32,000 nt of DNA from Candidatus Saccharimonadota bacterium (GTDB taxonomy: Bacteria; Patescibacteriota; Saccharimonadia; Saccharimonadales; Saccharimonadaceae): positions 900,001-932,000 of the forward strand of contig CP064995.1 of assembly GCA_016700015.1 (NCBI GenBank). Reading direction: 5' to 3'. Shown here piece after piece: positions 13,676-32,000 of the stretch. Positions within the stretch are counted from its first letter, which is position 1; every line of letters begins with the position of its first letter. The translations under genes and the position numbers were made by a program. The notes under the pieces are model-generated. The model was given only the letters and a program-made list of their open reading frames with translations, was not told where the DNA came from and did not search any database.

Positions 13676-13728
13676 GTGTATACGGGTGTTTACACCGAAA
13701 GGTATATAAGCTAAAATAACACCTGTAT

Positions 13729-13749
13729 CTGCGCGCTTTATGCGCGCAG
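13729..13749 (+). terminator. GC-rich hairpin between the grpB-like gene and the tRNA (no U-tract)
   Basis: CTGCGCGC-TTTAT-GCGCGCAG forms an 8-bp perfect stem. It lacks a downstream T-run, so its role as a terminator is uncertain. Confidence 0.3.
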
Positions 13750-13768
13750 AAGCACCTGGTAAATATAT

Positions 13769-14348: not shown

Positions 14349-14456
14349 GGGTCTAGATTTAAACAACAAGCTGGTCCATTTGCGGACTGTTCGTGCTTAT
14401 AAACGGGCAGCCACAAATAATCAGCCGAGCGCGAGCTTTGTTGTTTAGGTCTAGAC
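14349..14456. repeat. Imperfect ~23-bp inverted repeat enclosing a 62-nt spacer
   Basis: GGTCTAGATTTAAACAACAAGCT (14349-14371) pairs with AGCTTTGTTGTTTAGGTCTAGAC (14434-14456). Pairing includes GTCTAGA/TCTAGAC and AAACAACAA/TTGTTGTTT. Confidence 0.55.
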
Positions 14457-14481
14457 AGCCAGTGGCTGTCCTTTTATTTAT
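14454..14481 (+). terminator. Hairpin plus T-rich tract just upstream of the first island ORF
   Basis: GACAGC-CAGTG-GCTGTC is followed by CTTTTATTTAT. Confidence 0.5.
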
Positions 14482-14503
14482 CGACAGCCATACGGAGAAA
14501 AGT

Positions 14504-16250: not shown

Positions 16251-17515
16251 ACGACTTTTAGTGTACCGTTCTTGATGGCAATCTTGTCATGAATGCCGCC
16301 CGCGAACGCAGTCTTTTCTGTCTCAGTCCCATCACGAAGCACGTAGCGCGAGTATTCGACAAGTGGTGAAGCAAGTGTGACCTCGACACCATGCTGTGTT
16401 AGCACGCTGCGAGATATCATGTGATGTTTTTCGATTTTCCCTTGTAGCTTAGCACTAACATGAAGGCTTCGAGGATGTTTAACGATGAAATCCTCAAGCA
16501 GTTCACAGACGACGTCCTGGTTGAGGTATTTTTCGGTGCATTTCGTATTTATCTTACGAGTGCAGTTGTAATATACGAAGCGTTTGTATGCACCTGTTTT
16601 CTTGATGAGTTTTATTTTTTCCTGTGCAGTCATTTCCGACCCGCACTGCCCACATTTTAGTAGTCCTCGAAAGGCGAATGTTTTTGTGCCCCATTGACCA
16701 CAATATGTTCCTCGCGATTGTTGCACCTCATCCCACAACTCCTTTGTGACGAGTGGCTTGTGCGCTCCGTCGTACCAAGGGTTGTCCGGACCTTCTGGGT
16801 ACTGAAACCTGCCGTAGTAGAAGGGGTTAATGAGCATGGCGAGTATGCTACTGAGCGGTACCGACTTTCCGGTGCGGGTCGTAATATTTTGCGAGTCTAA
16901 CCATACTTTCAATTTCCGCCCGCTCCAGCCCTGTGCTGCTTTATGGAACATCTCTGTGATGATTTCAGCACGTTCAGGGTCGGGGATGATGTCGGCAACT
17001 CCCCCGAATGATCTGTTGATATACCCGAGCGGTGCTGTGCCCGGTCGCCACCCCATTTCGCATTTCGTCCGTATGCCTCGTTTCACGTTTATACTTTTAT
17101 TATCGTTCTCTAGCTTGGCCTGCGAGCAAAGAATCATGAGCAAAAACTTTTCATTTGGACTATTCGTGAAGGTTTGTGAGTAGGTGCGGATGTGAAGCAG
17201 CTTGTGCTGATCCATGAGATCAACAATTGAGCCAAGGTCACCAGCGTTGCGGCTTAGTCGATCTGGTGCCCATGTAAGAATTGCGTTATATTTCTCACTT
17301 TCTATTTCTGCGAGCATCTCATTATATAGTGGTCGCTGTCCGGAGTCTTTCGCTGAGTGGCTTTCATGTTTTTCGCATACTACGTTTAGGCCTTCTGCTT
17401 CTGCGAGTGCACGCATTTCGTTAATTTGAGAATCGATTGACATTGCCTGTCGCTCGTCGCTCTCTGAGCTTTTTCGAGCGTACAGACAATAGGTGAGTTG
17501 GTTGTTCTTTTCCAT
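16247..17515 (-). CDS. Large serine recombinase (resolvase catalytic domain + recombinase domain + zinc-ribbon)
   Basis: The N-terminal catalytic motif is YCLYARKSSESDERQAMSIDSQ. The recombinase domain reads GYINRSFGG...YYGRF. The Cys cluster is CGQCGSEM...YYNCTRK..KC. The ORF-track start at 17527 is a TTG, so ATG 17515 (MEKNN) is preferred. Confidence 0.9.
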   Translation of the reverse strand: MEKNNQLTYCLYARKSSESDERQAMSIDSQINEMRALAEAEGLNVVCEKHESHSAKDSGQRPLYNEMLAEIESEKYNAILTWAPDRLSRNAGDLGSIVDLMDQHKLLHIRTYSQTFTNSPNEKFLLMILCSQAKLENDNKSINVKRGIRTKCEMGWRPGTAPLGYINRSFGGVADIIPDPERAEIITEMFHKAAQGWSGRKLKVWLDSQNITTRTGKSVPLSSILAMLINPFYYGRFQYPEGPDNPWYDGAHKPLVTKELWDEVQQSRGTYCGQWGTKTFAFRGLLKCGQCGSEMTAQEKIKLIKKTGAYKRFVYYNCTRKINTKCTEKYLNQDVVCELLEDFIVKHPRSLHVSAKLQGKIEKHHMISRSVLTQHGVEVTLASPLVEYSRYVLRDGTETEKTAFAGGIHDKIAIKNGTLKVV

Positions 17516-17523
17516 TGCAAGGT

Positions 17524-17556
17524 ACAAGGTACCGCGTAACAGAGGTAAAGTCTAGT
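17524..17556. repeat. 33-bp repeat, copy 1: ACAAGGTACCGCG-N7-GGTAAAGTCTAGT
   Basis: The 13-nt arms are identical to those of the copy at 18845-18877, and only the 7-nt centre differs (TAACAGA vs AGGGGTG). It lies immediately upstream (minus strand) of the recombinase start. Confidence 0.75.
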
Positions 17557-17582: not shown

Positions 17583-18506
17583 ATGAGTTTATATGCAGTA
17601 TCGGGAAATTCAGCCAAACGGGTTAAACCGCTTATCGATCGCAATGGCAAAAAGATCGTAGAGCGTGATATTCAGAATATATTTGAGGCCAGTCTCGATG
17701 AGATTTTGAACGTTACGTTTCTTGCAAGTGAATACTCAACGAGTTTCGGCGGTCGGATGGACACAATTGGAATCGACAACGAAGGTAATCCGTGCATTAT
17801 TGAGTACAAAAAGGGTCACAATGAGAGTGTTATTAACCAGGGCCTGTCATATTTACGCTGGTTACTTGATCATAAGGATAGCTTCGAAAAACTCTGTGGT
17901 TCAAAAGGCGTAACAAGAGCGATCCAGTGGGATTCTCCTCGGGTAATATGCGTAGCTGAAAGCTATAACAAGTTCGACACCGATACTGCCGACCTGCTGC
18001 CAATTAACATCGAGCTCTATCGCTATAAGCTGTATGAAAGCGGCTTGCTAACAGTGGATACGGAGAACTATCAAAAGGTCAAGATTCATAACGTTGCGAG
18101 GGTTATGAATGGTGACAAAAAGAAGCCTGAGAAGTTGCAGGAAATATATTCACTCGAAAGCCACTTGGCGCTCGCAAATGATGCAACGAAGGAACTATTT
18201 GAAGAGCTGCGTGAGCGTATACTTTCTATCGATAAGGACATCTCCGAAGAGCCAAAGAAGCTTTATGTTGCGTACAAAACGACACGCAACTTTGTCGATA
18301 TTGTTTTCAAGAAGACAAAGCTTAAGATAGCGCTTAATATAAAGTCGGGGACGATAGATGACCCGGAGGGTCTTGCTCGCGACCTTGAGTCGCCAGTGCA
18401 CGTTGGTCACTGGGGCAACGGCGATTACGAAATTGAAGTTAGCTCCATGAGTGAGCTTGACTATGCTATGAAACTCATCCAGCAGAGTTACGATATCAAT
18501 CAATAA
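17583..18506 (+). CDS. NucS/DUF91-like PD-(D/E)xK nuclease-fold protein with a DUF5655-like C-terminal domain
   Basis: AGGAGG lies 6 nt upstream. The motif is ERDIQNIF...GRMDTIGIDNEGNPCIIEYKKG...VINQGLSYLRWL. The C-terminus KKLYVAYKTTRNFVDIVFKKTKLKIALNI matches the pattern I associate with DUF5655. Confidence 0.7.
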   Translation: MSLYAVSGNSAKRVKPLIDRNGKKIVERDIQNIFEASLDEILNVTFLASEYSTSFGGRMDTIGIDNEGNPCIIEYKKGHNESVINQGLSYLRWLLDHKDSFEKLCGSKGVTRAIQWDSPRVICVAESYNKFDTDTADLLPINIELYRYKLYESGLLTVDTENYQKVKIHNVARVMNGDKKKPEKLQEIYSLESHLALANDATKELFEELRERILSIDKDISEEPKKLYVAYKTTRNFVDIVFKKTKLKIALNIKSGTIDDPEGLARDLESPVHVGHWGNGDYEIEVSSMSELDYAMKLIQQSYDINQ

Positions 18507-18877: not shown

Positions 18878-19484
18878 TACCTTGCGCCTCATCTCGATGT
18901 ACCCTTGTTCGATATTCTTGTTTTTGTTCGGCTATCTTTTCCTTAGCACCTGGAAACGCTCGATAAAATTCTTCTGTGTATACTCTGCCAAAAGCTTCAA
19001 TATCAATCGGCGCATCCGGATTATACATCCCAGCATCTATTTTCGCCGCCTCAAGCTCTTGGCGGATACGGAGCCTCTCAATCATCATGTCCAGTGCCTG
19101 GATGTCCGTACTGAAATACATTGAATCTACGCCGACAGGAAGATGTGTCATACGGCCTACGCCACGTCTGTCAAAGTATTCGCTCTCTACCCGGTTCGAT
19201 GCATACTTCTGACTGTTGTGTCGTAAATAAAATTCAATTGATCTTGGAACGCCATTGCGAGCATTCTCTATCAGTTTGGATTCCACATAGTCATTCATCG
19301 TATCTTGCCCGATTTCCTGCGCGTCGCGTACGGCATCACGAAAAGTCGTGTCGCTCTCCATCCACCGGTAAAGTGTGCTACGAGCAATGCCGATTGTTTT
19401 GCAGGCGCGCAGCATATTCGGATTTTCCTCAAGCAGCTTGAGGAGCTGTTTCTTAATTGCTTTCGATATCCTCATGGGCTGCAC
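18873..19484 (-). CDS. Phage-type HTH protein (phBC6A51 / small-terminase-like helix-turn-helix)
   Basis: NMLRACKTIGIARSTLYRWMESDTTFRDAVRDAQEIGQD...ESKLIENA...SIEFYLRH matches the phage HTH/terminase-small-subunit-like pattern. It overlaps the upstream methyltransferase gene end. Confidence 0.65.
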   Translation of the reverse strand: MQPMRISKAIKKQLLKLLEENPNMLRACKTIGIARSTLYRWMESDTTFRDAVRDAQEIGQDTMNDYVESKLIENARNGVPRSIEFYLRHNSQKYASNRVESEYFDRRGVGRMTHLPVGVDSMYFSTDIQALDMMIERLRIRQELEAAKIDAGMYNPDAPIDIEAFGRVYTEEFYRAFPGAKEKIAEQKQEYRTRVHRDEAQGN

Positions 19485-20847
19485 CTTGTGATATCAATTG
19501 TCGCTTCAAGCCGGTTTCGTTTTCCCAGCGCTTCATGATCACCTCTGCGTAGGTCGGCACCTTTTCCATGATGAAACACCTACGATTCAGTTTGGTCGAC
19601 GCAATGAGCGTACTACCGGAGCCACCGAACGGCTCAATCACAAGCGCATTGCGTTTCGTCAGTACCTTGATGTAGGGGATGAGTATGTCAATTGGCTTTG
19701 TGCCAAATATCACGCCCTGGCCTGAATGTTTTTCGTCGCTGGCGTTGAACTCAATGAAGTCAGTCGGCATATATCGTTGTCCCTTTTCATAACCCTCCCA
19801 CTGCGGCTTGCCTGATATGGCAAACAAGGCTGTTTCGTACAACTCTTGTAGTGGACCTTCCTCTTCATCGGTGTTGTATTTTACATCACCCGAACCACCA
19901 ACCATAGCGATATCGTGCTTACTAAAGAACTTGTACTTTGCACTAAATCCCTGATGTCGGTTTGGCAGGTGCCAGACAATCATATTCTTAACCTTCCAGT
20001 GCTTTTCCATCTCTTCCCATATGATGCGCAGATTCTTCCAGTTCTCGTAGCAGATGATGGAGAAGTCCACTTGTGAATGTCTGGCAACATTGTCCATCCA
20101 TAGCTCGGTGAAATTATCGGGTAGGCTTTCTGTTTCGAGGTATATCCTGTCTTGTTTTGACCCGAAGCCTTTGACTGGCTTGCCGCCGCGCTTTGCATGA
20201 AGATAATCAAGGATATAAGGAGGATCTGTCATGCACATGTCGGCCTTTTCGTCTCCCATGAGCTTTTGAAAATCCTCCACAACAGTTGAATCTCCGCACA
20301 TAAGCCGCGAATCACCCAGCTGATAAATATCACCCTTTTGAACAGATACTGTTTTTATATCAAGTTTTTTCAACTCTTTCTTTAGGTCAAAAGAGTTTTT
20401 CTCGTCCATATCTTCTATGTCAAAGATTTTGTCGATCTCTTCGGAATCAAATCCGATATCAGCAAGGAGGCTCTCGTCGAACTCTTTTAGCAGGTCATAA
20501 TCCCAGTTGCCGCCAGTACGATTGAGGCGCACACTTAAGTCACGCTCCTTCGCCTCATCGAGAGATATGTAGACAATTGGCACTTCGTTGAAGCCGAGGT
20601 TCTGCATGGCCTGTAGGCGCATATTGCCTCCAATGACAACGTTTTGTCTCTGACTGTAAGCATTGACGATGAGTGGATCCACAACGCCATACTTCTCAAT
20701 GCTTTCGCAGAGCTTCTGCATCTGCTCGTCGCTCCACTTACGAGGGTTATACTCGCTTGGCTTCAACTCGCTTATTTTGAGTTGCCGAATCTGCAACTTT
20801 CCACTAATAGTAGCCATGGGGGCACTATTCCTTTCTTTTGTGCCCAA
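19453..20847 (-). CDS. ParB-like nuclease domain fused to an N6/N4 DNA methyltransferase (beta-class, phage-type orphan MTase)
   Basis: The N-terminal ParBc-like region reads LKPSEYNPRKW...GVVDPLIVN...VIGGNMRLQA. The catalytic motif is DPPY (CMTDPPYILDY). The C-terminal AdoMet motif is EPFGGSGST. Confidence 0.9.
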   Translation of the reverse strand: MGTKERNSAPMATISGKLQIRQLKISELKPSEYNPRKWSDEQMQKLCESIEKYGVVDPLIVNAYSQRQNVVIGGNMRLQAMQNLGFNEVPIVYISLDEAKERDLSVRLNRTGGNWDYDLLKEFDESLLADIGFDSEEIDKIFDIEDMDEKNSFDLKKELKKLDIKTVSVQKGDIYQLGDSRLMCGDSTVVEDFQKLMGDEKADMCMTDPPYILDYLHAKRGGKPVKGFGSKQDRIYLETESLPDNFTELWMDNVARHSQVDFSIICYENWKNLRIIWEEMEKHWKVKNMIVWHLPNRHQGFSAKYKFFSKHDIAMVGGSGDVKYNTDEEEGPLQELYETALFAISGKPQWEGYEKGQRYMPTDFIEFNASDEKHSGQGVIFGTKPIDILIPYIKVLTKRNALVIEPFGGSGSTLIASTKLNRRCFIMEKVPTYAEVIMKRWENETGLKRQLISQGAAHEDIESN

Positions 20848-21140: not shown

Positions 21141-23546
21141 ATGAACAAAAGCACGCTGACTGAAGCAGAGATACGCACACGCTACATTACACCCGCCATT
21201 CTGGCCGCCGGCTGGCCATTAGACGCTGTCCGAGAAGAGTTTGTTTACTTCACGAAAGGACGCATTGAGGTTCGCGGCAAATTATCCGTAAGGAAAGATG
21301 CAAAACGCGTTGACTATCTACTCATGCGCAACGATGGCACAAACACACCCCTGGCAGTTGTAGAGGCTAAAGACAATAAACACGGCGTTGGTGACGGCAT
21401 GCAGCAAGCAGTCGAATACGCTGAGTCACTTGACGTACCTTTTGTGTTTACATGTAATGGAGATTCCTTTTTGATGCGCGATCGGACGGGGCTGTTGACG
21501 TCTGCAGAAAAGGAGATTGCCCTAAATAACTTTCCATCACCGGCGCACCTAGATAGTCTGTATAAACAGTGGAGGGGAATAGAGAGGGCCGATGTCCAAG
21601 TCCTGAGCTCACCGTATTACGAAGATGGCAGTGGAAAACAGCCGCGCTATTATCAAAGGGTTGCCATTAATCGTACAATTGAGGCGATCGCAAAGGATCA
21701 AAAACGGATACTCCTCGTTATGGCCACAGGGACTGGCAAGACCTACACGGCAGCACAGATTATTTGGAGATACTGGAAGGCACCATCTCAAAGTAGCAAG
21801 CAGAAACGAATTCTATTTCTTGCCGACCGCAACATTCTCGTAGATCAGACTAAGACAAACGATTTTAAACACTTTGGATCGGCCATGACAAAAATTACTG
21901 GTCGTAACATCGAGAAGGAGTATGAGATTTACCTAAGTCTCTATCAGGCCATTTCTGGTAGTGACGAGGCGAGGAACGCATATAAGGAATTTTCCCCAGA
22001 TTTTTTTGATCTCATCGTTGTAGATGAATGTCACAGAGGCAGTTCGAAAGAGGACAGCAGCTGGCAAGAAATCTTACGCTATTTCAACAGTGCTACACAG
22101 GTGGGGCTTACTGCTACGCCAATTGAAACCAAAGAAGCCAGCAACACACATTACTTTGGCGAACCGATATACACGTATTCACTGAAGAACGGCATCGACG
22201 ACGGATTTCTCGCGCCATACAAGGTTATTCGTGTTGCAACCGACGTTGATACATTTGGGTATCGTCCTGAAGAAGGCGAAGTCGACGATGAAGGTAACGA
22301 AATTGAGGATAGGGAATATTCCACGAAGGACTTTGATCGCAGGATTATCCTGCCTCAACGCGACCAAGAGGTGGCTAGGTATTTAACTAAATTTCTAGAA
22401 AAAACAGATCCATATGCGAAAACTATCGTATTTGCCCGTACGATCAATCATGCGGAACGCCTACGCAGAGCACTCGTTAACATCAATGCTGAAAAAGTAC
22501 GTGAAAGCAGCAGATACATTATGCGCATTACGGGAGACGATGAGCTTGGTAAGGCACAGCTTGATAATTTTATTGATCCTGAGTCACGTTATCCTGTCAT
22601 TGCCATCACGAGCAAGCTCATGACGACGGGCGTCGACGCACAAACATGTAAGGTTATTGTTCTTGATAGCAATATCGAAAGCATGACAGAGTTCAAGCAA
22701 ATCATTGGGCGTGGTACTCGCGTCCGCGAAGATTATGGAAAAACCTACTTCACCATTTTAGACTTTCGTAATGTCACTAAGCTTTTTGCTGACCCGGACT
22801 TTGACGGTGACCCCGTAAAAGTATACGAACCTAAAAATGAGGAAGAGTTCAATGACACGATTGACGCTATAGATGAGTCAGTCGATGAAGCTACATCAGG
22901 CAGCGATGATGCCGCCATAGATAGCTTTGTAGATGGGGCTATTTACTACCCAGATCCCAAGGATGGTAGAAGTGACCGACCAGTTGTCCATACTATAAGC
23001 AGTCAGAAGGTTACTATTATCGGTGACAGTGTACGTATTATGGACACAGACGGGAAGCTTATAACAGAGAGCCTAACTGACTATACGCGTAAAAACATTC
23101 TCGGCGAATATGCAACTCTTGATGAGTTTTTACAGAAATGGTCATCGGCAAAGCAGAAATACTTTATTCTAGACGAGATGGCCGAAAAAGATATTCCAAT
23201 CTATGAGCTAGCAGACGCTTACGGCAAAGATGCTGACATGTTTGACGTTGTCACGAGTATTGCGTATGGACAAAAGCCGCTAGGGCGTAAGACTCGAGCC
23301 GAGAAGGTTCGTCACAGCAGGTTTATTAATCAGTACCAAGGTAAAGCTCGTGAAGTGCTGGAAGCACTTGTAGATAAGTACGAATCGACGAACTTAAAAG
23401 CAATTGAGGAGCGGGAAATCCTCAAGGTGCAGCCGCTTGACTCTTTCGGAACACCAATCGAGATTGCTAACTTGTTTGGAGGCATTGATGGTTATGAAGA
23501 GGCGGTCGGTAGACTCGCAGGTGAATTATATGAGGTAGCAATCTAA
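21141..23546 (+). CDS. hsdR: Type I restriction enzyme R subunit (EcoAI/EcoEI-like, type IB-style architecture)
   Basis: The N-terminal PD-(D/E)xK reads VDYLL...AVVEAKD. Helicase motif I is MATGTGKT and motif II is VDECHRGS. Later helicase motifs are TSKLMTTGVDA and QIIGRGTR. A C-terminal EcoEI_R_C-like tail is present. Confidence 0.93.
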   Translation: MNKSTLTEAEIRTRYITPAILAAGWPLDAVREEFVYFTKGRIEVRGKLSVRKDAKRVDYLLMRNDGTNTPLAVVEAKDNKHGVGDGMQQAVEYAESLDVPFVFTCNGDSFLMRDRTGLLTSAEKEIALNNFPSPAHLDSLYKQWRGIERADVQVLSSPYYEDGSGKQPRYYQRVAINRTIEAIAKDQKRILLVMATGTGKTYTAAQIIWRYWKAPSQSSKQKRILFLADRNILVDQTKTNDFKHFGSAMTKITGRNIEKEYEIYLSLYQAISGSDEARNAYKEFSPDFFDLIVVDECHRGSSKEDSSWQEILRYFNSATQVGLTATPIETKEASNTHYFGEPIYTYSLKNGIDDGFLAPYKVIRVATDVDTFGYRPEEGEVDDEGNEIEDREYSTKDFDRRIILPQRDQEVARYLTKFLEKTDPYAKTIVFARTINHAERLRRALVNINAEKVRESSRYIMRITGDDELGKAQLDNFIDPESRYPVIAITSKLMTTGVDAQTCKVIVLDSNIESMTEFKQIIGRGTRVREDYGKTYFTILDFRNVTKLFADPDFDGDPVKVYEPKNEEEFNDTIDAIDESVDEATSGSDDAAIDSFVDGAIYYPDPKDGRSDRPVVHTISSQKVTIIGDSVRIMDTDGKLITESLTDYTRKNILGEYATLDEFLQKWSSAKQKYFILDEMAEKDIPIYELADAYGKDADMFDVVTSIAYGQKPLGRKTRAEKVRHSRFINQYQGKAREVLEALVDKYESTNLKAIEEREILKVQPLDSFGTPIEIANLFGGIDGYEEAVGRLAGELYEVAI

Positions 23547-24991
23547 TGTTAGGCGCAGGATTCATTAAAAGTATTCAAAACGAAATGCGTAAAGATAATG
23601 GTGTCGACGGTGATGCCCAGCGCTTGAGTCAGCTTGTGTGGCTTATTTTCTTAAAGATTATGGATGATAATGAGCAGCAAAAAGAGCTACTCGACAAAAA
23701 ATATGTAGCCGCAGTTCCAGAGAGATATCGGTGGAAAAATTGGGCTGCTTCTCCCGATGGTCTTACTGGCGATCGTTTGCTTGAATTCATCAACAGAGAG
23801 CTGTTTTCAGATCTGAAAAATATTGAGATTAAACAGGACAATCGCCGAACCGCTGTTGTGCGTGAAGTATTCGCTGAGTCTACAAACTTTATGAAAGACG
23901 GTACGCAGCTTCGCAAGGTCATTAATATTATCAATGGCATAAACTTCAACTCTTCCGATGATCGACACTCATTTGGGGATATCTACGAGACGCTGCTTGC
24001 AAGCCTTCAGTCCGCAGGTAACGCAGGAGAATTCTACACCCCAAGGGCGGTTACAAAATTTATTATTGATCGTATCAACCCAAAGCTTGGCGAAAAGGTG
24101 CTCGACCCAGCTGCTGGTACTGGGGGGTTCCTGACGGGTGCAATTGACCATATTCGCAAAGAGGTTGAAACTCCAGAAGATGATGAGCTTTTACAGAAAT
24201 CTATCTACGGGGTGGAGTGGAAACAGCTACCGTACTCGCTCCTGATTACTAATATGATCTTTCACGGTATTGAAGAACCTGACAACATTCGTCATGACGA
24301 CACTTTGTCTAGACCATACATTTCATATGGTCCAGAAGATTATGTTGATTGTATTGCGGCTAACCCTCCATTTGGTGGCGTAGTAAAAGACGGTACTGAG
24401 CATAACTTTCCTTCAAGTTTTCGCACCAAGGAAACTGCAGACCTATTCCTGATTTTGTTCATTCGCTTGCTGAAGCAAGGTGGTCGTGCAGGTATTGTTT
24501 TGCCAGATGGTTTTTTATTTGGTGAAGGTGCTAAAACTCGTATTAAGCAGCATCTACTCGAGGAGTGCAACCTCCACACAATTATTCGTTTGCCCGGTAG
24601 TGTGTTTGCTCCATATACATCTATAGCAACTAACTTATTATTCTTTACAAAGGGCGAGCCAACGAAAGAGATTTGGTATTATGAGCATCGGCTACCTGAA
24701 GGAGTAAAGGCGTACAACAAAACCAAGCCTATTCGTCTCGAAGAATTTGACCCTATCAAGGAATGGTGGGACAACCGCACTGACAGCGACGTCGCCTGGA
24801 AGGTTAGTGTCGATGAGATTAAAAAGCGTGATTACAATCTCGATATTAAGAATCCAAATGTTGTCGAAGTCGATGAGCTGAACCCAGAAGAGGTGCTCGA
24901 GAGCTATCGGGCGAAGCAAGCAGAAGTTAAAAATATCCTGGAACAGATTAAGGTAGAGTTAACTGAGGCGCTGTCGCATCATGACAAGTAG
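23546..24991 (+). CDS. hsdM: Type I restriction-modification N6-adenine DNA methyltransferase M subunit
   Basis: Motif I is VLDPAAGTGGFL and motif IV is IAANPPFGG. The start overlaps the hsdR stop (TAATG). Confidence 0.93.
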   Translation: MLGAGFIKSIQNEMRKDNGVDGDAQRLSQLVWLIFLKIMDDNEQQKELLDKKYVAAVPERYRWKNWAASPDGLTGDRLLEFINRELFSDLKNIEIKQDNRRTAVVREVFAESTNFMKDGTQLRKVINIINGINFNSSDDRHSFGDIYETLLASLQSAGNAGEFYTPRAVTKFIIDRINPKLGEKVLDPAAGTGGFLTGAIDHIRKEVETPEDDELLQKSIYGVEWKQLPYSLLITNMIFHGIEEPDNIRHDDTLSRPYISYGPEDYVDCIAANPPFGGVVKDGTEHNFPSSFRTKETADLFLILFIRLLKQGGRAGIVLPDGFLFGEGAKTRIKQHLLEECNLHTIIRLPGSVFAPYTSIATNLLFFTKGEPTKEIWYYEHRLPEGVKAYNKTKPIRLEEFDPIKEWWDNRTDSDVAWKVSVDEIKKRDYNLDIKNPNVVEVDELNPEEVLESYRAKQAEVKNILEQIKVELTEALSHHDK

Positions 24992-27170
24992 TGTTAAGGA
25001 TTTGAGGGTACTCGTCGATAATCTCGATGAGTATATTCGCATACCTGGTGGCGTAGATCGTCTTAAGAAGATGATACTGCATCTCGCCGTATCGGGTCAG
25101 CTTGTACCCCAGGATGCAGGCGAAGGTACTGGCGAGCAGCTATATGAACAGATTCGCGAAGTCTATAAGCCGAAAAAATCACTGCCAGAAGTTGACGTCG
25201 CTCCATTTACTATACCGATGAGCTGGCGATGGACTAGGCTAGGTGATCTGTTTGATATAACATCTAGTAGGCGTGTTATGCAGGCTGATTGGAAGAGTTC
25301 TGGAATCCCGTTTTTACGGGCTCGTGATTTAGCTAATGCCGTAAAGACTGGCCGTATTGAGGCAGAAGTATTTGTTAGTGAAGAGTATTATGGCGAGGTA
25401 GCTAAGAGTAGTGGCGTACCTGTTCCTGGAGATATAATGGTTAGTGGCGTTGGTACTATCGGTATACCATATATAGTCAAGATTAGTGATAGGTTCTACT
25501 TCAAAGACGCGACTATACTTTGGTTTCGAAATCCAGCAAAAGTCCTTGCTGATTTTGTTGAAATTGTTTTTCATGCTGAGTTCATGAAGAATGTCATCAT
25601 TAGTCAATCACAAGGCACGACAGTAAGTACTTACACAATTGCTGATGCGCGGCTTAATATGATGCCGTTGCCCCCACTCGCTGAGCAGGAGCGGATCATA
25701 GAGAAGAGAGATGTCCTCTTTGCTTTGATAGACGATTTGTCAAAAAAATATGCCGAAGAAGAGGCGCGACGCAAAAAACTAATAGGTAGCTTGTTGGGGG
25801 CATTTTCGGATAAAAATAACAGCAAAGCACTGGAACTATTATCAGAGCTGGTCCGATCTAAGGAGGATATATGGTGGCTGAGAAACTTCATTCTACATCA
25901 GGCTGTTTCTGGTAGGCTTACACAATCAGATCCAAGCTCTGAAGGTGTGCAAGTGCTATATGAAAGAGCACTTTTGGAACGTGCCAAGGTGCAATCGGGT
26001 AGCCACAAGCCACTACCGATCATCGAGAAACATGAAGGTGACTACGAGTTGCCAGATACCTGGCGTTGGGCTCGTCTTGGTGAGGTTACCAACTATGGGA
26101 AAACAGAAAAACGTAAGCCGGTAGATATTTCGGAGGAAACCTGGCTATTGGAACTTGAAGATATAGAGAAGAATTCTTCAAAGTTAATTTCAAAAGTCAC
26201 GGCAAACGAAAGAAACCCTTCAAGCGACAAAAATATATTTCGTAAGGGCGATGTATTATATGGAAAACTGCGTCCGTATTTGGACAAGGTTATTGTGGCG
26301 GATACTGATGGCGTGTGTTCAAGTGAAATACTTCCAATTAGGGCCTATGGTGATTCTATCCACCCCGAATATCTACTACTCGTAATGAAGTCTCCAAACT
26401 TTGTAGCGACAGTTAACGAGATGACGTACGGTGTAAAGATGCCGAGACTGGGCACTGAAGACGGTCGAAAGATGCTGATTCCACTTGCACCTTACGCAGA
26501 GCAGCTAGAGATAGTTGAGAGAACAAAACGACTACTTAGCCTGGTTGCTATGCTTGAGTCTGTATTTGACTCTCCTTGTATACCTATAGAAAGAGTATTA
26601 GTGAAAGACAATAGGTGGTGGTTTGCCCTTAAACAGGGCATTGGATCTGTGTTAGACAAACTTTCTAAAACACAGTACGAGCGTGGCGAGATGGTCATTG
26701 CAAAGTACATGTATCTCCTACAAGAAGTTTATAAAGTACCTTTCGGACTTCAGTTTGTTAAGCATCAGTTTGGACCATATGATCCTGATATCAAGAAGGC
26801 TATTTTAGGTAGTTCGTTCAATAAAGATAAGTTCTTCACGGTTAAAGGGTCGGGTGTGAAGCAGGTCTATAGTTTGGGCATGAAAAGCGATACACTTATG
26901 AAATACTCCTCAGATATCCTCACATCTGCACAGTCGTCACTAGATGAGTTGATGCAATATACTGCGAATGCGAAAAGCCGCGACATTGAGCGACTTGCAA
27001 CGGTCTGTAAAATCATTCAAGATAGCCAGTCAAATGATGAGCGGGTTGTGATAAATGAGATGAAAGCCTGGAAGAATGATAAATTCCCACCAGAAGAGGT
27101 AAGAAAGACTTTAGCCTTTGTTCATCAAAAAGGGTGGGATTCCAAGTTAATAAGAGGATCTTCGGTTTAA
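24981..27170 (+). CDS. hsdS: Type I RM specificity subunit with two target-recognition domains plus an unusual ~195-aa C-terminal extension (Panacea/DUF4065-like)
   Basis: TRD-flanking conserved repeats are present: PMSWRWTRLGDLF / PDTWRWARLGEVT, PLPPLAEQERII / PLAPYAEQLEIV, and LHLAVSGQL / LHQAVSGRL. At 729 aa the protein is far longer than typical HsdS. The tail contains AKYMYLLQEVYKVPFGLQFVKHQFGPYDPDI. Confidence 0.88.
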   Translation: MTSSVKDLRVLVDNLDEYIRIPGGVDRLKKMILHLAVSGQLVPQDAGEGTGEQLYEQIREVYKPKKSLPEVDVAPFTIPMSWRWTRLGDLFDITSSRRVMQADWKSSGIPFLRARDLANAVKTGRIEAEVFVSEEYYGEVAKSSGVPVPGDIMVSGVGTIGIPYIVKISDRFYFKDATILWFRNPAKVLADFVEIVFHAEFMKNVIISQSQGTTVSTYTIADARLNMMPLPPLAEQERIIEKRDVLFALIDDLSKKYAEEEARRKKLIGSLLGAFSDKNNSKALELLSELVRSKEDIWWLRNFILHQAVSGRLTQSDPSSEGVQVLYERALLERAKVQSGSHKPLPIIEKHEGDYELPDTWRWARLGEVTNYGKTEKRKPVDISEETWLLELEDIEKNSSKLISKVTANERNPSSDKNIFRKGDVLYGKLRPYLDKVIVADTDGVCSSEILPIRAYGDSIHPEYLLLVMKSPNFVATVNEMTYGVKMPRLGTEDGRKMLIPLAPYAEQLEIVERTKRLLSLVAMLESVFDSPCIPIERVLVKDNRWWFALKQGIGSVLDKLSKTQYERGEMVIAKYMYLLQEVYKVPFGLQFVKHQFGPYDPDIKKAILGSSFNKDKFFTVKGSGVKQVYSLGMKSDTLMKYSSDILTSAQSSLDELMQYTANAKSRDIERLATVCKIIQDSQSNDERVVINEMKAWKNDKFPPEEVRKTLAFVHQKGWDSKLIRGSSV

Positions 27171-27172
27171 CA

Positions 27173-27694
27173 ATGGCACACGTAGCCCTTATTGACATGA
27201 CGGCCGTCGAAGCACGAAAAGTCCTGTTGAAAAATGATAGCTATATTAACTTTGATTTACCAAATTATTTTAACTTTAGTCCTTTGTTGAACGCGATATC
27301 TACTAAGATGACTGGTAGTGTTTGGCAGGAGTTTCAAGGTATCGTCATTGACGATGACGGAAAGCCAAAGACAGCAAAAGATGGTAGTGAGATTCGAAAG
27401 AATCCGGGCTATCAATTTGGCGTTAATCATAGAATTGTTGTTAACAAAAACTCCAATCTATCATGGAGACCGCTTGAACTGACACATCCTGTCCTTTACG
27501 TTGCTTTGGCGCATTTATTTACCGACGAAGAAAACTGGAAGCTACTCACAGAGCGGTTCAAAAGTTTCAAGAGAGATACGATTGAAGTTGCCAGTATCCC
27601 CCCGGTAAATCATTTGATAAGAAATCAAATAAGGCAGAACAGATCAGGAAGTGGTGGGAGAAGAGCGAACAGCGTAGCGTCGAACTTGGACTAG
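27173..27694 (+). CDS. Abi/UG-type reverse transcriptase, N-terminal fragment (frame 1 of a split gene)
   Basis: ATG 27173 lies 2 nt after the hsdS stop. The N-terminus reads LLKNDSYINFDLPNYFNF. An RT motif 1/2-like segment is NLSWRPLELTHPVLYVAL. The frame ends at 27694, downstream of a C6 tract (27598-27603). Confidence 0.7.
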   Translation: MAHVALIDMTAVEARKVLLKNDSYINFDLPNYFNFSPLLNAISTKMTGSVWQEFQGIVIDDDGKPKTAKDGSEIRKNPGYQFGVNHRIVVNKNSNLSWRPLELTHPVLYVALAHLFTDEENWKLLTERFKSFKRDTIEVASIPPVNHLIRNQIRQNRSGSGGRRANSVASNLD

Positions 27695-27741
27695 AGTATA
27701 GCTATATTAGCGAGACAGACATATCGGACTGCTATAGCTCA

Positions 27742-28749
27742 ATGTATACGCATTCGGTTGCCTGGGCTATACATGGCCGCGATGAAGCCTTTGAGCAACA
27801 GCGCAATAAAGAACTGCTTGGAAATAAAATCGATGACATTTTGATGGCTATGCACCATCGGCAAACCAATGGTATTCCGCAGGGAAGTGCGATGTACGAC
27901 TTTATTGCCGAGCTAGTACTGGGCTATGTTGATACATTGCTAGTTGACGCAATAAGCAAGGAAAGCATTGAAGAGTATCGGATCATTCGATTTAGGGATG
28001 ATTATAAGATTTTCACCAAAAATCCAACAGACGGAAAGAAGATCCTTCGAGTTATTAGCGATACGCTTATAGACTTCGGTCTTAGGCTAAATGCGACGAA
28101 GACTGTCTTTGGCCGAAGTCTCATTGATGCATCGTTCAAGGCAGATAAGCTTGACGGGCTTTTCGTTCCCAAGATCGAAAACAACTACGCGAAACACCTG
28201 ATGCAAATCCATCAATTTTCTGAGAAATATCCAAATTCTGGTCAAGTTTCTAGGATGCTCAACATTCTCCACGATGATATGTATGCACGGTTAGGGGGTG
28301 GGTTAAAGAAGGACCTGAAGGATTACGAGAAGCCAAAAGTTATGATCAGCATTCTTGTTGATATGTGTGCTAAAAATCCAAGATTCTACAATATCATCGC
28401 CGCCATGATTAGTCTTCTTCTTTCGCAGCTGTCTGATGAAGACAAGGTTGCGACGGCACGTATTGTTCATGATCGGCTTCGAGCATTGCCAAACACGGGG
28501 CTACTGGATCTATGGTTGCAACGAGCTGTGTACAAATACGACCAAACTTTGTCATTTGGTGAACCGCTAGCACAAGTCCCAATACTGCATGACGGAAAGC
28601 CTGTTGGGATATGGAACAACGAGTGGCTCAACCAAGAGGCGATAGATCTAATAATGTCAGCAACGGTTGTAGATGTAGACCTCTACGCGAATAACTCTGC
28701 AGTTACGACCCGTGGTGAAGTCGATGAATTTAGGGATATACCGAGTTAA
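27742..28749 (+). CDS. Abi/UG-type reverse transcriptase, catalytic and C-terminal helical fragment (frame 2; the frame is open from 27586)
   Basis: RT motif A is TDISDCYSSMYTH (27715-27753, partly upstream of the first ATG). Motif B is GIPQGSAMYDFIAELVL (27871-). Motif C is RFRDDYKIF (27988-). Motif D/E-like is GLRLNATKT. A C-terminal alpha-helical repeat-like region follows. Confidence 0.8.
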   Translation: MYTHSVAWAIHGRDEAFEQQRNKELLGNKIDDILMAMHHRQTNGIPQGSAMYDFIAELVLGYVDTLLVDAISKESIEEYRIIRFRDDYKIFTKNPTDGKKILRVISDTLIDFGLRLNATKTVFGRSLIDASFKADKLDGLFVPKIENNYAKHLMQIHQFSEKYPNSGQVSRMLNILHDDMYARLGGGLKKDLKDYEKPKVMISILVDMCAKNPRFYNIIAAMISLLLSQLSDEDKVATARIVHDRLRALPNTGLLDLWLQRAVYKYDQTLSFGEPLAQVPILHDGKPVGIWNNEWLNQEAIDLIMSATVVDVDLYANNSAVTTRGEVDEFRDIPS

Positions 28750-28751
28750 CT

Positions 28752-30101
28752 ATGATTTCAAAATCCGACTACATGCTCTTCCTCAAACATCCAGCCTGGC
28801 TCTGGGTGAAGAAGCACGATCCTGGCAGGATTCCACCTGTAGATGATGCAACGCAGGCGATGTTTGATGCCGGTCATGCATTTGAGCCGTACGTTGAGTC
28901 TCTTTTTCCCGAAGGTGTGACGCTTGGTTTCGGTGACTACGATGAATATCTATCATTACCGGTCCGCACTCGGCAGGCGCTCGAATCGGGGGCGCGGATT
29001 TTGTTTCAGCCTCGATTTGAATGGAAAGACTTTACTTGTATATCAGATATCGTGTCGGTTGTAGAGGGCAACACTGTTGACCTATACGAAATTAAATCGA
29101 GTACAAAAGTAAAACCCGAGCATCTGTATGATCTGGCATTTCAGAAGGTAGTGCTAGAAGGCAATGGGTTATCAGTTCGCAATACATCGGTAATACATGT
29201 CAATAATCAGTATGTACGGCGTGGTGAAGTTAATCCACGCGAGCTTACGGCTTTTGAAGACGTGACCGGTAAAGTAAATGAAATTGCCGCCAAGACACCC
29301 GGCTATATGCAAGTGGCGGCACAGGTGGTGCAGTCGACGACAATGCCCGACCCGAATCCAAATCTCACGAAGCTAGGAGCAAAGGCAGAGTGGCTGCAAA
29401 TTTACGAAAATATCTTCCCGCCTGAGCCGAAAGTATGGCCAGAAGATACCGCACCGACGATTGATAAACAGGCTATCGCTGGTTTCTTGAACGACTTAAC
29501 ATACCCACTATACTTCCTCGATTACGAAACAATGTCTGGAATTATTCCGCATTTTGATGGCCAGCGCCCGTACCAACAGGTTCCCATGCAGTATTCATTG
29601 CATATTTTGCAAACACCAGATGGCGAACTCGAGCATCGCGAATTTCTACACCGCGATAATTCTGATCCAGCACGTCCGCTTGTCGAGCAACTAGTGGGCG
29701 ACGTCGGTACGGAGGGTTCAGTTATTGTATGGTTCGAAGGCTTTGAAAAATCGCGTAACGCCGAACTGGGTGAGATGTTTCCGGAGTATAGAGTGGCTAT
29801 GGCAGCACTCAACGATCGAGTGGTCGATTTGATTATTCCGTTTAAAAAGAAATGGTACGACGATCCTCGGTTTGAGGGGAGTGCGAGTATCAAAAAAGTG
29901 CTGCCCGTACTGTGTCCTGAGCTGTCATACAAAACCTTGGGCATTCAGGAAGGTGGTTCCGCTCAGCGATTGTGGATGGAGGCGGTACTAGATGGCACCC
30001 GCGAAGCAGAGAAGGAAAAGATACTCGCTGATTTACTGGAGTATTGCGGGTTGGATACGTTGGCGATGGTCGAGATATATCGGAGATTACGTGAACAATG
30101 A
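28752..30101 (+). CDS. DUF2779-like protein: N-terminal PD-(D/E)xK (Cas4/RecB-like) nuclease fold plus C-terminal RNase-H-fold DEDD-type exonuclease-like domain
   Basis: The N-terminus has ISDIV...VDLYEIKSSTK (D...ExK). The C-terminus has YPLYFLDYETM...RPYQQVPMQYSLHI...YCGLDTLAMVEIY, the pattern I associate with DUF2779. The start lies 2 nt after the RT stop. Confidence 0.75.
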   Translation: MISKSDYMLFLKHPAWLWVKKHDPGRIPPVDDATQAMFDAGHAFEPYVESLFPEGVTLGFGDYDEYLSLPVRTRQALESGARILFQPRFEWKDFTCISDIVSVVEGNTVDLYEIKSSTKVKPEHLYDLAFQKVVLEGNGLSVRNTSVIHVNNQYVRRGEVNPRELTAFEDVTGKVNEIAAKTPGYMQVAAQVVQSTTMPDPNPNLTKLGAKAEWLQIYENIFPPEPKVWPEDTAPTIDKQAIAGFLNDLTYPLYFLDYETMSGIIPHFDGQRPYQQVPMQYSLHILQTPDGELEHREFLHRDNSDPARPLVEQLVGDVGTEGSVIVWFEGFEKSRNAELGEMFPEYRVAMAALNDRVVDLIIPFKKKWYDDPRFEGSASIKKVLPVLCPELSYKTLGIQEGGSAQRLWMEAVLDGTREAEKEKILADLLEYCGLDTLAMVEIYRRLREQ

Positions 30102-30706
30102 GAGTAGCATGCCCTAGCTGTGGTTCGACAAACACGTGTCGCATTCAGTATGGCATGCCTGATTTCACCGAGAAGCTTGAGCGAGATGTTGAAGCCGGAA
30201 AAGTTCACTTAGGCGGGTGTGTCGTATTAGGAGGTGACCCGAATCGTTACTGTAACAACTGCGAAATAGACTTCGATACCAATGCTACAAGTATTTATCT
30301 CGACATCGACGGCGTGCTACTCGCAAATGAAAAAACCGCCGCTAATTATGCCAATGAATTCATTCAGACTGTTTTAGATCGGTATCCGTATACGACTTAC
30401 TGGCTCACCACCCACTGCTGGAGGGGCGAGAATAACGCTAAGGAAGTTCTGAGCCCTTATCTGAGACCAGACATACTCCCACTACTCGATAAGATAAAGC
30501 CGACCGAGTGGGGAGAAGAAAAGACTGACGCTATAGACTTCAGTAAGCCGTTTAAATGGTTTGATGACGACCTGTACGAAAAGGAGCTAGCGGTGCTTGC
30601 GGAAAATAATGCACTTGAGAGCTGGGTAGAGATTGATTTATCTAAGGATCCTGACCAGCTCGCGCAGAGTATCTGTGACCTACAGAACGAGGCGTGGGCA
30701 AAATGA
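30098..30706 (+). CDS. Zinc-ribbon plus HAD-superfamily phosphatase-like protein
   Basis: It shares an ATGA start/stop overlap with the upstream gene. The Zn ribbon is CPSCGS...CNNCE. HAD motif I is YLDIDGVLL, motif II-like is WLTTH and the acidic motif IV-like is WFDDD. Confidence 0.65.
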   Translation: MRVACPSCGSTNTCRIQYGMPDFTEKLERDVEAGKVHLGGCVVLGGDPNRYCNNCEIDFDTNATSIYLDIDGVLLANEKTAANYANEFIQTVLDRYPYTTYWLTTHCWRGENNAKEVLSPYLRPDILPLLDKIKPTEWGEEKTDAIDFSKPFKWFDDDLYEKELAVLAENNALESWVEIDLSKDPDQLAQSICDLQNEAWAK

Positions 30707-31194
30707 AGAAACGAATCACGGATGACTACCTTGCGATTATCGACGGAGAGCCAAGTTTGCGCCAAGACCTATGGTTTTATATTCAGGTAGGTAAGATCGT
30801 AGGTCAGGTCAACTCGATCGAGATGTACATAAATGGCGTCATCGCGAGTTACTACAGTAGGCAGGATATTGATTCCCAAGAAAGGTTGAAGAGGGATATC
30901 GTCCAACCTATGACGCTTGACACTAAAATAGGTCTCGTGAAAAAGATAGCTATAAATCTCAGGCTTGGATTCTCGCGTCAGAATAAAAGTGATTTGTACA
31001 GATGGAAGGACATCAGGAACGTTGTAGCCCATGGAGTTCCTTTGCATGTATCTAGGCCGGACGACCCGATCGAACTCGTGTTGGTGTATAACAATGACTT
31101 CTATGACGTAGGTGTGCTCACTGAGGAGTTCTACGAAAGGCAGAATAGATTAACGAGCTACCTGACCTCCATCCAGGAGTCTATAGAAGATTAA
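30703..31194 (+). CDS. Small HEPN-like (Rx4H; DUF4145-like) protein
   Basis: The ORF is open from 30694. ATG 30703 forms an ATGA overlap with the upstream stop. The Rx4H motif is WKDIRNVVAHG (31015-31032) in a predicted all-helical ~160-aa protein. Confidence 0.55.
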   Translation: MKKRITDDYLAIIDGEPSLRQDLWFYIQVGKIVGQVNSIEMYINGVIASYYSRQDIDSQERLKRDIVQPMTLDTKIGLVKKIAINLRLGFSRQNKSDLYRWKDIRNVVAHGVPLHVSRPDDPIELVLVYNNDFYDVGVLTEEFYERQNRLTSYLTSIQESIED

Positions 31195-31324: not shown

Positions 31325-31353
31325 TTGTAATTGATAGCTTACGACTCTATAAT
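31325..31353 (+). promoter_or_regulatory. Sigma70-like promoter giving an apparently leaderless transcript
   Basis: TTGTAA (31325-31330), a 17-nt spacer and TATAAT (31348-31353) are present. The ATG at 31360 lies 7 nt after the -10 box, and there is no SD. Confidence 0.55.
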
Positions 31354-31359
31354 GAGCTT

Positions 31360-31809
31360 ATGAGCAAGGGAAGCCCAGAGGATAAACGAAAACACCTGGA
31401 GATGATCCAGGCTGTTATATCGCGTATGGGCTCGAATTCATTTCTATTTAAGGGGTGGTCAATAACCATTATCGCCGCAGTTTCTGCGTTCGCAGGCAAG
31501 GAGAGCGACCACACTTTGATGCTCATTCCTGTCGTTTCAACACTTTTATTTTGGGCTATTGATGCTTATTATCTTATGAATGAAAGGGCATTTCGTAAGT
31601 TATACGAGAAAGTAGCGGCGACCGACCCAAGTGACATAGACTTCGCCATGACTCCCGCAAAAGAATATATCGGTTTCAAAAACTGGCTGAAGACGCTAAA
31701 GACCACGATTCTTAGTCTATTTTACGGTGTCGTGCTCATGTTATTGATATTCTTAATCTTCGCAATAAATAACATAAGCTTGGAGGTGTTGATACACTAT
31801 GGTGCGTAA
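31360..31809 (+). CDS. Small 3-TM membrane protein (149 aa), partner of the downstream TIR gene
   Basis: The hydrophobic segments are WSITIIAAVSAFA, LMLIPVVSTLLFWAIDAYY and ILSLFYGVVLMLLIFLIFAI. The 3' end overlaps the next ORF by 11 nt. Confidence 0.6.
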   Translation: MSKGSPEDKRKHLEMIQAVISRMGSNSFLFKGWSITIIAAVSAFAGKESDHTLMLIPVVSTLLFWAIDAYYLMNERAFRKLYEKVAATDPSDIDFAMTPAKEYIGFKNWLKTLKTTILSLFYGVVLMLLIFLIFAINNISLEVLIHYGA

Positions 31810-32000
31810 GGTATTTTTTAGTTTTCACTACAAACCAGATAATTGGCGTGCAGCACAGGTACGCAGTATCGGCGTAGTCGAAGGTAATAACCCTGTTTCT
31901 GATAACGACTGGGAGGACATCGCAGATGGTGGTGACGATGCAATTGAAAAATGGATAAACGACCAGATGTCTGGAAAAAGCTGCGCAGTAGTCTTGGTTG
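31799..32000 (+). CDS. ThsB-like TIR domain protein (DUF1863/TIR-like), 3' end outside the window
   Basis: This ORF is not in the ORF track because it is truncated. GGAGGTG (31783-31789) lies 9 nt before ATG 31799. The translation MVRKVFFSFHYKPDNWRAAQVRSIG...DWEDIADGGDDAIEKWINDQMSGKSCAVVLV parallels the N-terminus of Thoeris ThsB (..RVFFSFHY....R.N.VRN...) as I recall it. Confidence 0.7.
   Translation, partial: MVRKVFFSFHYKPDNWRAAQVRSIGVVEGNNPVSDNDWEDIADGGDDAIEKWINDQMSGKSCAVVLV

Follow-up and report, generated by a model that had tools for sequence, protein, structure and literature searches.

Which biological unit do three tightly overlapping genes belong to, when they encode a predicted dual nuclease, a Zn-ribbon phosphatase-like protein and a small helical protein? 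This question is raised by the genes named here g1 (DUF2779 family), g2 (Zn ribbon fused to a HAD core) and g3 (probable HEPN-type RNase), which lie near the end of a 32,000-nucleotide stretch of Candidatus Saccharimonadota bacterium DNA (assembly GCA_016700015.1, contig CP064995.1, positions 900,001 to 932,000 of the forward strand), referred to below as the window. The original prediction described them as a translationally coupled triad that could act either as an independent module or as the effector set of the adjacent reverse transcriptase (RT). The coordinates of the three genes and their two ATGA start/stop overlaps were confirmed (Table 1), and the same 4-nt overlaps recur in relatives. 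Overlooked in that view was the Type I restriction-modification (R-M) operon of which these genes are the 3' tail. They close a seven-gene co-directional array (21141–31194) in the order hsdR-hsdM-hsdS, frameshifted Abi-P2 RT, g1, g2 and g3, in which every junction is an overlap or a gap of at most 2 nt: hsdM overlaps hsdR by 1 nt and hsdS by 11 nt, and the stop codon of the RT lies 2 nt ahead of the start of g1. Since this packing continues upstream as far as hsdR, the unit that needs explanation is the seven-gene array and not an isolated triad. The array ends with g3, which is separated from the next gene by a gap of 165 nt.

Table 1. Features of the seven-gene array (window coordinates).
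Feature	Position	Strand	Description
hsdR	21141..23546	+	Type I restriction subunit, first gene of the co-directional array; Pfam ResIII 1e-45, EcoEI_R_C 1e-25, HSDR_N
hsdM-like N6-adenine methyltransferase	23546..24991	+	Open reading frame with NPPF motif; identity from the reading frame and motif only
hsdS specificity subunit	24981..27170	+	Pfam Methylase_S, PADLOC Specificity_I 1e-80, to residue ~527 of 729
Abi-P2-type RT, frameshifted	27173..28749	+	PADLOC AbiP2 9e-37 (first reading frame), 9e-101 (second reading frame)
RT frameshift site	27598..27604	+	CCCCCC followed by a missing A
g1, predicted DUF2779 dual nuclease	28752..30101	+	ATG 28752, TGA 30099-30101, 449 aa
g1/g2 ATGA start/stop overlap	30098..30101	+	ATG of g2 at 30098
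g2, 4-Cys Zn ribbon and predicted cap-less HAD	30098..30706	+	TGA 30704-30706, 202 aa
g2/g3 ATGA start/stop overlap	30703..30706	+	ATG of g3 at 30703
g3, helical, probable HEPN-type RNase	30703..31194	+	163 aa from ATG

Conservation of this arrangement was followed in two sets of related loci, 80 genome loci centred on the HAD family and 80 metagenome loci centred on DUF2779, in which homologues were identified by tblastn (E ≤ 1e-3). No homologue of g3 was found in any of the 80 HAD-centred or of the 80 DUF2779-centred loci, and the order DUF2779-HAD-g3 was absent from all the other g3 contexts examined. The exact triad is therefore unique to the window, and the proposal that the three genes act as one unit fails because they are not syntenic as a triad elsewhere. 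Only two pairs recur, DUF2779-HAD and DUF2779-g3, so that the genes represent not a fixed system but two recurrent pairs that share DUF2779 as a hub. An exact look-up of the g1 of the window and of P0130, which is 99% identical to the first half of g3, found neither on record, and hence no independent copy of the exact locus was found.

The first of these pairs, DUF2779 followed by HAD, is present in roughly one in five loci of either family. DUF2779 lies upstream and on the same strand in 18 of the 80 HAD-centred loci (directly adjacent or overlapping in about ten of them), and HAD lies downstream in 16 of the 80 DUF2779-centred loci. The linkage spans DUF2779 proteins that are 36% to 89% identical to g1, and the 4-nt overlap between both genes is kept in nine loci (L006, L007, L050, L055, L058, L061, L068, L071 and L072). 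The closest relatives of the window pair are found in L006 and L007 (89% and 74% identity), where DUF2779 is again followed by HAD. Two further loci hold the closest relatives of the window HAD, each separated from DUF2779 by a DUF6994 gene (Pfam 2e-81; 7347–8057 in L096 and 372–1082 in L177).

The second pair was seen in half of the informative g3 contexts (three of six: L001/L002 and L178 among the loci), with g3 placed directly after DUF2779 through a 4-nt overlap. In L180 the order is HAD, a DUF2726 nuclease and g3, the last two sharing a 4-nt overlap. The g3 homologues of L003 and L004/L005 stand alone, and those of L176 and L179 lie at the edge of their contigs. L069 holds all three families within 5 kb: a distantly related HEPN-like gene (1e-8 with the profile of the wider family) follows a Type IIG enzyme and directly precedes a DUF2779 that is likewise distant, and an FtsK-gamma gene and a HAD come 2.4 kb beyond. 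Thus a looser grouping of HAD, nuclease and HEPN-like protein recurs once or twice. Neither DUF6994, DUF2726 nor the HEPN-like protein of L069 has a match in PADLOC.

The neighbourhoods of DUF2779 and HAD are rich in restriction and defence genes. Upstream of DUF2779 and in the same direction are HsdR (8 loci), GmrSD (6 loci), Eco57I/MmeI-type enzymes, UvrD-like and ResIII helicases and a PolyA_pol+SLFN protein, together with a helicase carrying an MTES_1575 restriction-endonuclease domain, SMODS, a Type II methyltransferase, Avs4 and ThsB. On the 3' side of DUF2779 some loci carry macro-domain proteins (one of them fused to an ADP-ribosylglycohydrolase) or an AAA_13 ATPase. HAD genes without DUF2779 directly follow HsdR, ResIII/DEAD proteins, a T5orf172-ResIII-Eco57I enzyme, a Schlafen-type helicase, GmrSD_N+AlbA_2 or SMODS-SLATT. 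In the relatives, DUF2779 and HAD, paired or single, are thus placed downstream of Type I, IIG/ISP and III-like enzymes, GmrSD, Avs4 and ThsB. The HAD gene is usually terminal, being coupled to its upstream gene in 50 of 72 cases and to its downstream gene in 24 of 72. In two loci a full-length Avs4 gene (PADLOC 1,971 bits; 114–4892 in L071 and 1784–6529 in L072) overlaps the start of DUF2779 by 4 nt, in the order Avs4-DUF2779-HAD-FtsK-like.

This last gene forms part of a triad that is commoner and better conserved than that of the window, DUF2779 followed by HAD and by an FtsK-like ATPase; the window has no FtsK-like gene. Of the 30 loci that hold both DUF2779 and HAD, 13 have an FtsK-like or gamma-only gene no more than 4 kb away. 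The ATPase, of ~485 aa, follows HAD in L055, L058, L061, L065, L068, L071, L072, L085 and L104, and its best PADLOC matches are SspH and mad8; for this reason its identification as a housekeeping FtsK was considered and judged unlikely. Stand-alone FtsK gamma-domain proteins are found beside DUF2779 and/or HAD as 77-aa genes (L001, L116 and L134) and at 7486–7983 in L069. A different arrangement, conserved in L128, L131 and L136 at positions ~3.2–9.8 kb, is an array of six genes in the order GmrSD, a 145-aa protein, DUF2779, two proteins of 105 aa and 547 aa, and HAD. The 547-aa protein has no match in Pfam or PADLOC and the 105-aa and 145-aa proteins have none in PADLOC; the 547-aa protein has further homologues ahead of HAD in L020, L022 and L024.

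The g1 protein matches the Pfam family DUF2779 (PF11074) well above its cut-off (137.7 bits against 23.3, E 3e-40, residues 254–379), and its N-terminal half shows a match to Cas_Cas4 that falls below the gathering score (20.2 bits against 22.7, E 7e-4, residues 99–181); in PADLOC only weak Cas4 matches were obtained (3e-4). In an alignment of 18 DUF2779 sequences that are 36–89% identical to g1 by tblastn (alignment A4), the PD-(D/E)xK triad formed by Asp99 (SDIV), Glu113 and Lys115 (YEIKS) is invariant. So are the DEDDy residues Asp257 and Glu259 (LDYET), Asp359, and Tyr431 and Asp435 (YCGLDTLAM). The sequence motifs thus define g1 as a predicted N-terminal Cas4-like PD-(D/E)xK nuclease joined to a C-terminal DEDDy 3'-5' exonuclease, and the dual nuclease originally proposed is borne out, the motifs quoted for it being the invariant residues of the family. 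No invariant cysteine is present in the N-terminal half of the alignment, the sole one being Cys432 in the exonuclease domain; a Cas4-type Fe-S cluster is therefore unsupported. The likeness to Cas4, the CRISPR adaptation nuclease, lies in the D...ExK core and in the weak profile matches given above. The differences are the score below the Pfam cut-off, the lack of conserved Fe-S cysteines, the additional exonuclease domain and a locus without cas1, cas2 or a CRISPR array. A search of PDB sequences with the DUF2779 profile gave nothing at E ≤ 1.

The two-nuclease architecture of DUF2779 is already published. PF11074 was classified by Majorek et al. as the RNase H-like family F.17, in the 3'-5' exonuclease clade, and its fusion to DUF83 was noted (PMC3985635). 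In a 2026 paper the quasi-essential Mycoplasma member MMSYN1_0389 of JCVI-syn3.0 was given the same two-nuclease dissection (PMC13621843). All the catalytic residues of these two domains are conserved in g1. The difference lies in the context: here, and generally in Saccharibacteria, DUF2779 is found at the end of restriction and defence operons and paired with HAD, a setting that is not described in the DUF2779 papers found. Full-text literature searches returned no paper placing DUF2779 in a defence-operon context.

In g2 a Zn ribbon (residues ~1–60) precedes a HAD core (residues ~65–195). The four HAD motifs are invariant among 40 homologues, with Asp69 and Asp71 (DIDGV) in motif I, Thr104/Thr105 in motif II, Lys142 in motif III and Asp156/Asp157 (FDDD) in motif IV; the CxxC...CxxC cysteines of the ribbon are conserved in the long forms of the family. 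The homologues number ~1,690, some of ~200 aa with the N-terminal ribbon and others of ~132 aa that consist of the HAD core only. The nearest Pfam family is HAD_SAK_2 (PF18143), which g2 itself matches below threshold (E 0.018, 15.9 bits against a cut-off of 27.5) and which is matched by 25 of the 40 relatives, with a best E of 2e-4 (bit score of that match not reported). The AlphaFold2 (AF2) model of g2 has a pLDDT of 93, and a Foldseek search with it placed HAD-fold proteins on top, with SCP3 (probability 0.93, TM 0.43–0.49) followed by YrbI and Nir2 LNS2, none of them at E ≤ 0.001. The neighbours of best probability are the small CTD phosphatases (SCP/FCP). A HAD profile run against the PDB gave motif-I matches to ordinary HADs only (E > 0.1).

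The description of g2 as a Zn ribbon with a HAD core is accordingly supported by its motifs, by the HAD-like predicted fold and by the consistent HAD_SAK_2 matches, below threshold for g2 itself. It looks like a cap-less HAD phosphatase with a catalytically competent appearance, near the RNA-repair HADs without being formally one of them. With HAD_SAK_2, the phosphatase of T4 PNKP and the SCP/FCP enzymes it would share a minimal, cap-less core of ~130 aa with motifs I–IV intact. From HAD_SAK_2 it differs in its score under the Pfam threshold, in being stand-alone or fused to a Zn ribbon, with no kinase or ligase fusion, and in a distribution almost restricted to Saccharibacteria/Patescibacteria (237 stretches among the GTDB species-representative genomes). 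In viral contigs HAD was found at 4 loci only and g3 at none, and from this rarity the module is not typically phage-borne.

The g3 family is defined by the signature Arg105-Asn106-x-x-Ala109-His110 (RNVVAH) together with Glu40. In 37 family sequences, reaching down to ~20% identity, Glu40, Arg105 and His110 are the sole invariant residues, and Asn106 and Ala109 are conserved in at least 90%. The family is very rare: its close homologues number 8 in 5.8 billion clusters, and 39 sequences at E ≤ 0.001 were retrieved with a profile from 1.84 billion representatives. The protein has no match in Pfam, NCBIfam or PADLOC and only a chance-level one in PHROGs (E 0.27), and no Pfam HEPN family is matched by g3, by the family consensus sequences or by five closer relatives. 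Among the wider family, HEPN_RiboL-PSP is matched by 17 of 37 members and other HEPN families by a few, with a best E of 5e-5; the single HEPN_RiboL-PSP match inspected in full reached 20.4 bits (cut-off 28.4). The top match of the g3 profile in the PDB is a weak one (E 0.012), aligned on RNsVAHG, to an entry named only 'CRISPR-associated protein'. The AF2 model (pLDDT 86) is mostly helical with a small beta-hairpin after the motif helix. The exact length of the protein is 163 aa and not 164 as first given. Foldseek gave no significant fold match for the model and found no solved HEPN structure.

The motif and the matches of its relatives indicate that g3 is probably a HEPN-type RNase. In the HEPN assignment made originally, the Rx4H motif has held, being invariant in the family, but neither a HEPN profile match of g3 itself nor a HEPN fold match has come to its side. 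Compared with the RiboL-PSP-HEPN, Csm6/Csx1 HEPN and Abi-type RNases, g3 appears similar in its R-N-x-x-A-H motif, its helical character and its small size, and its distant relatives match HEPN profiles. It differs in that g3 and its close relatives match no HEPN profile, in that no structural match of g3 to a solved HEPN was found, and in the beta-hairpin after the motif helix. No MNT nucleotidyltransferase lies beside g3, whose neighbours are the HAD gene and an intergenic gap, which sets the locus apart from the HEPN-MNT toxin-antitoxin systems. A HAD-g3 toxin-antitoxin pair was considered and rejected, as HAD nearly always occurs without g3. With their key residues invariant in the respective families, all three proteins look like active enzymes. 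The individual domains are of known kinds, the specific triad is a one-off combination, and the broader DUF2779-HAD hub in Saccharibacteria is worth following. That the triad is not a named system was also upheld: in PADLOC-DB v2.0.0 g2 and g3 have no match at E ≤ 1, and no model fits g1–g3 beyond the weak Cas4 matches of g1.

The reading that we favour, and to which we give about an even chance, is that these genes constitute an accessory tail of restriction and defence operons, modular in build and centred on the nuclease. It builds on how the genes are ordered and recurrently linked, on the defence genes around them and on the conservation of their catalytic residues, all of which were observed; the substrates, the order in which the proteins act and any defence phenotype are what we infer. 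DUF2779 would degrade DNA with free ends made by the upstream restriction enzyme, its PD-(D/E)xK domain nicking or resecting and its DEDDy domain digesting in the 3'-5' direction. The cap-less HAD might strip terminal phosphates from nucleic-acid ends, letting the exonuclease engage, or alternatively dephosphorylate the released, possibly modified, nucleotides. Where present, the HEPN-like protein could add an RNA-cleaving arm of abortive-infection type. PrrC/RloC-type RNases are embedded in Type I hsd loci, an arrangement that suggests a back-up arm if restriction is defeated. By analogy g3 may be regarded as a ribonuclease-like gene riding on a Type I R-M operon; it is unrelated to those RNases and has no ABC-ATPase or anticodon-nuclease domain.

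Several results weigh against an accessory tail of this kind. DUF2779 is missing from 62 of the 80 HAD loci and HAD from 64 of the 80 DUF2779 loci, and g3 also occurs alone. The structural neighbours of g2 include enzymes that act on protein and sugar substrates. The HEPN call for g3 draws on the motif and on sub-threshold transitive matches, and its model found no significant fold match. The DUF2779 family is not defence-specific, as its member in a minimal Mycoplasma is quasi-essential (PMC13621843). Finally, in about ten loci the block DUF2779-HAD-FtsK-like stays constant and the gene upstream varies, which could mean that it is the mere flank of an insertion hotspot.

The position of the array within the window bears on this last point. 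At ~14 kb the GC content falls from ~0.51 to 0.44, and the low-GC region that begins there carries a large serine recombinase, a small-terminase-like gene and a ParB-methylase; the array lies inside this low-GC integrative defence island. The distribution of the relatives, too, points to Saccharibacteria/Patescibacteria as the probable source of the genome. Beyond g3 follow PDC-M50A (a membrane protein, 8e-43; 31360–31809) and PDC-M50B, a ThsB-like TIR protein (1e-30; 31799–32000) that is cut by the end of the window.

The strongest rival, although itself rather unlikely, takes DUF2779 and HAD, with or without the FtsK-like gene, as resident repair or nucleotide-salvage genes flanking a defence-insertion hotspot, so that their adjacency to restriction genes would be positional and g3 would be inserted cargo. 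The constant block of L055, L058, L061, L068, L071, L072, L085 and L104, with FtsK-like proteins 73–87% identical and Avs4, ThsB or other genes upstream, is as expected from such a flank, and so is the quasi-essential DUF2779 of JCVI-syn3.0 (PMC13621843). A preprint describes CPR (candidate phyla radiation) bacteria as unable to make nucleotides (bioRxiv 10.64898/2026.07.13.738296), which would suit a salvage role. A resident flank is less easily reconciled with both flanks of DUF2779 varying across loci, with the 4-nt overlaps that tie DUF2779 to variable upstream genes, with the match of the FtsK-like protein to the defence ATPases SspH and mad8, and with two or more HAD copies in some genomes. 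The window genes themselves are enclosed by the low-GC island, with the R-M/RT genes on one side and PDC-M50 on the other. The hotspot explanation fits the roughly ten loci with a constant block and a variable upstream gene, and fits poorly where both flanks vary or where the genes sit inside an island, as in the window.

An RNA damage-and-repair role appears quite improbable. According to it the HEPN-like RNase would leave 2',3'-cyclic phosphate ends, the HAD_SAK-like phosphatase would heal these ends or block their repair, and DUF2779 would act on RNA or on DNA-RNA hybrids. It draws on the proximity of g2 to HAD_SAK_2, the HAD of 'Swiss Army Knife' RNA repair proteins, matched by most of the relatives tested, on the g2/g3 overlap and on the reunion of HAD and g3 in L180. 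The match of g2 remains below the gathering score, however, no kinase or ligase partner is present, HAD is almost always found without a HEPN-like gene (g3 was seen in none of the 80 HAD loci), and its commonest partners are DNA enzymes.

Similarly doubtful is the proposal that the Abi-P2 RT senses infection and that DUF2779, HAD and HEPN execute the response. The RT stop lies next to the start of g1, and in L097 an intact Abi-P2 RT (82% protein identity) is placed directly upstream of a DUF2779 that is 72% identical to g1, after HsdR; a different, group-II-like RT lies just upstream of HAD in L019 and L027. L097 is nevertheless the sole exception, the other 79 of the 80 DUF2779-centred loci being without this RT, and it has neither HAD nor g3. 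To our knowledge, Abi-P2-class RTs have been described as single-gene systems, which also counts against an RT with separate effectors. The RT of the window, moreover, is frameshifted. Its match to the Abi-P2 profile is strong and its reading frame is split: addition of one base at 27598–27603 restores a single frame of 538 codons from the GTG at 27134, or ~525 aa from the likely ATG at 27173, and the 1-nt deletion beside the C6 run is the only indel relative to the intact 525-aa RT of L097. An assembly error, decay to a pseudogene or phase variation could account for the frameshift. The suggested link between the RT and the three genes thus keeps one intact RT-DUF2779 pair in its favour and is weakly supported.

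The other suggestion made originally, a self-contained abortive-infection or RNA-damage module of nuclease, phosphatase and HEPN RNase, has little chance of being correct. The two ATGA overlaps join the genes, catalytic residues are conserved in all three, and the contexts of L180 (HAD, DUF2726 nuclease and g3) and L069 are in its favour. The missing synteny has already largely refuted it, as the triad is repeated in none of the 160 related loci and in no other g3 context; g3 is extremely rare and each gene is commonly found without the others.

That three unrelated single-gene modules came together by chance, in a compact genome with commonplace 4-nt overlaps, is very improbable: each gene is found alone elsewhere, 1- or 4-nt overlaps are frequent (16 of 72 upstream HAD junctions) and the scan of terminator- and promoter-like sites leaves transcription units undefined, but DUF2779-HAD in 34 of 160 loci and DUF2779-g3 in three of six contexts look far too frequent for it, as judged without a formal background rate.

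Regarding the sequence around the genes, consensus scans for promoters and terminators gave sites no more numerous than in shuffled sequences, and transcription units are therefore not definable from such sites. Repeats around the locus are short, chance-level matches only, and Rfam gave no RNA family inside or adjoining the triad. The hsdS product (729 aa) carries a C-terminal extension of ~200 aa (residues 531–729) with no Pfam match. PDC-M50A and PDC-M50B are a candidate defence pair that starts 165 nt after g3, and a promoter-like site is found at 31325–31353. Further upstream, a group I intron (Rfam RF00028, 70 bits, E 5e-16) at 13725–14070 coincides exactly with the GC drop that marks the island start. 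Allowing for introns, ARAGORN recognised a tRNA-Asp(GTC) with a 227-nt intron at 13769–14070, where the standard scan gave no tRNA; this intron-bearing tRNA-Asp site may be the integration site of the island. The large serine recombinase (16247–17527, minus strand) is flanked by the genes at 14393–15616 (407 aa, no Pfam match) and 17583–18506 (307 aa, DUF5655 at its end), in both of which similar short motifs (I[IY]I[IE]xK) hint at a possible nuclease. The ParB_N-N6_N4 methyltransferase fusion (19453–20847, minus strand) recurs in or near the islands of L001, L002 and L009.

The accessory tail that we favour for the window would have a wider counterpart in a bolder proposal, which we hold to be rather improbable: that an accessory defence module so far unrecognised exists across Saccharibacteria, made of DUF2779-HAD and an interchangeable third partner (a HEPN-like RNase, or an FtsK-like ATPase or gamma-domain protein). 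Such a module would fit 3' of unrelated sensors and restriction enzymes (Type I, IIG, III-like, GmrSD, Avs4 and ThsB) and supply the destruction of cut DNA that RecBCD/AddAB perform in other bacteria. The phosphatase would then serve to condition ends or to sanitise the nucleotides released, and discrimination of self from foreign DNA by sequence might fall to the FtsK gamma domains. RecBCD and AddAB degrade restricted DNA; by analogy, a RecB-family nuclease placed after a restriction system would finish the cleaved foreign DNA, and FtsK-like translocases often accompany DUF2779-HAD. DUF2779 differs in having no helicase, and we know of no Chi-like recognition by it.

CPR bacteria, Saccharibacteria among them, are described as mostly without CRISPR and reliant on restriction-type defences (PMC4742961). 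If the genes discussed here do no more than flank an insertion hotspot, they would even so help in practice to locate new defence genes in CPR genomes. If the accessory module is real, a nuclease-phosphatase tail shared by many defence operons would represent a new organising principle of CPR/Saccharibacteria immunity, and would provide the first functional context for DUF2779, for the Saccharibacteria-specific cap-less HAD (~1,700 members) and for a very rare HEPN-like family.

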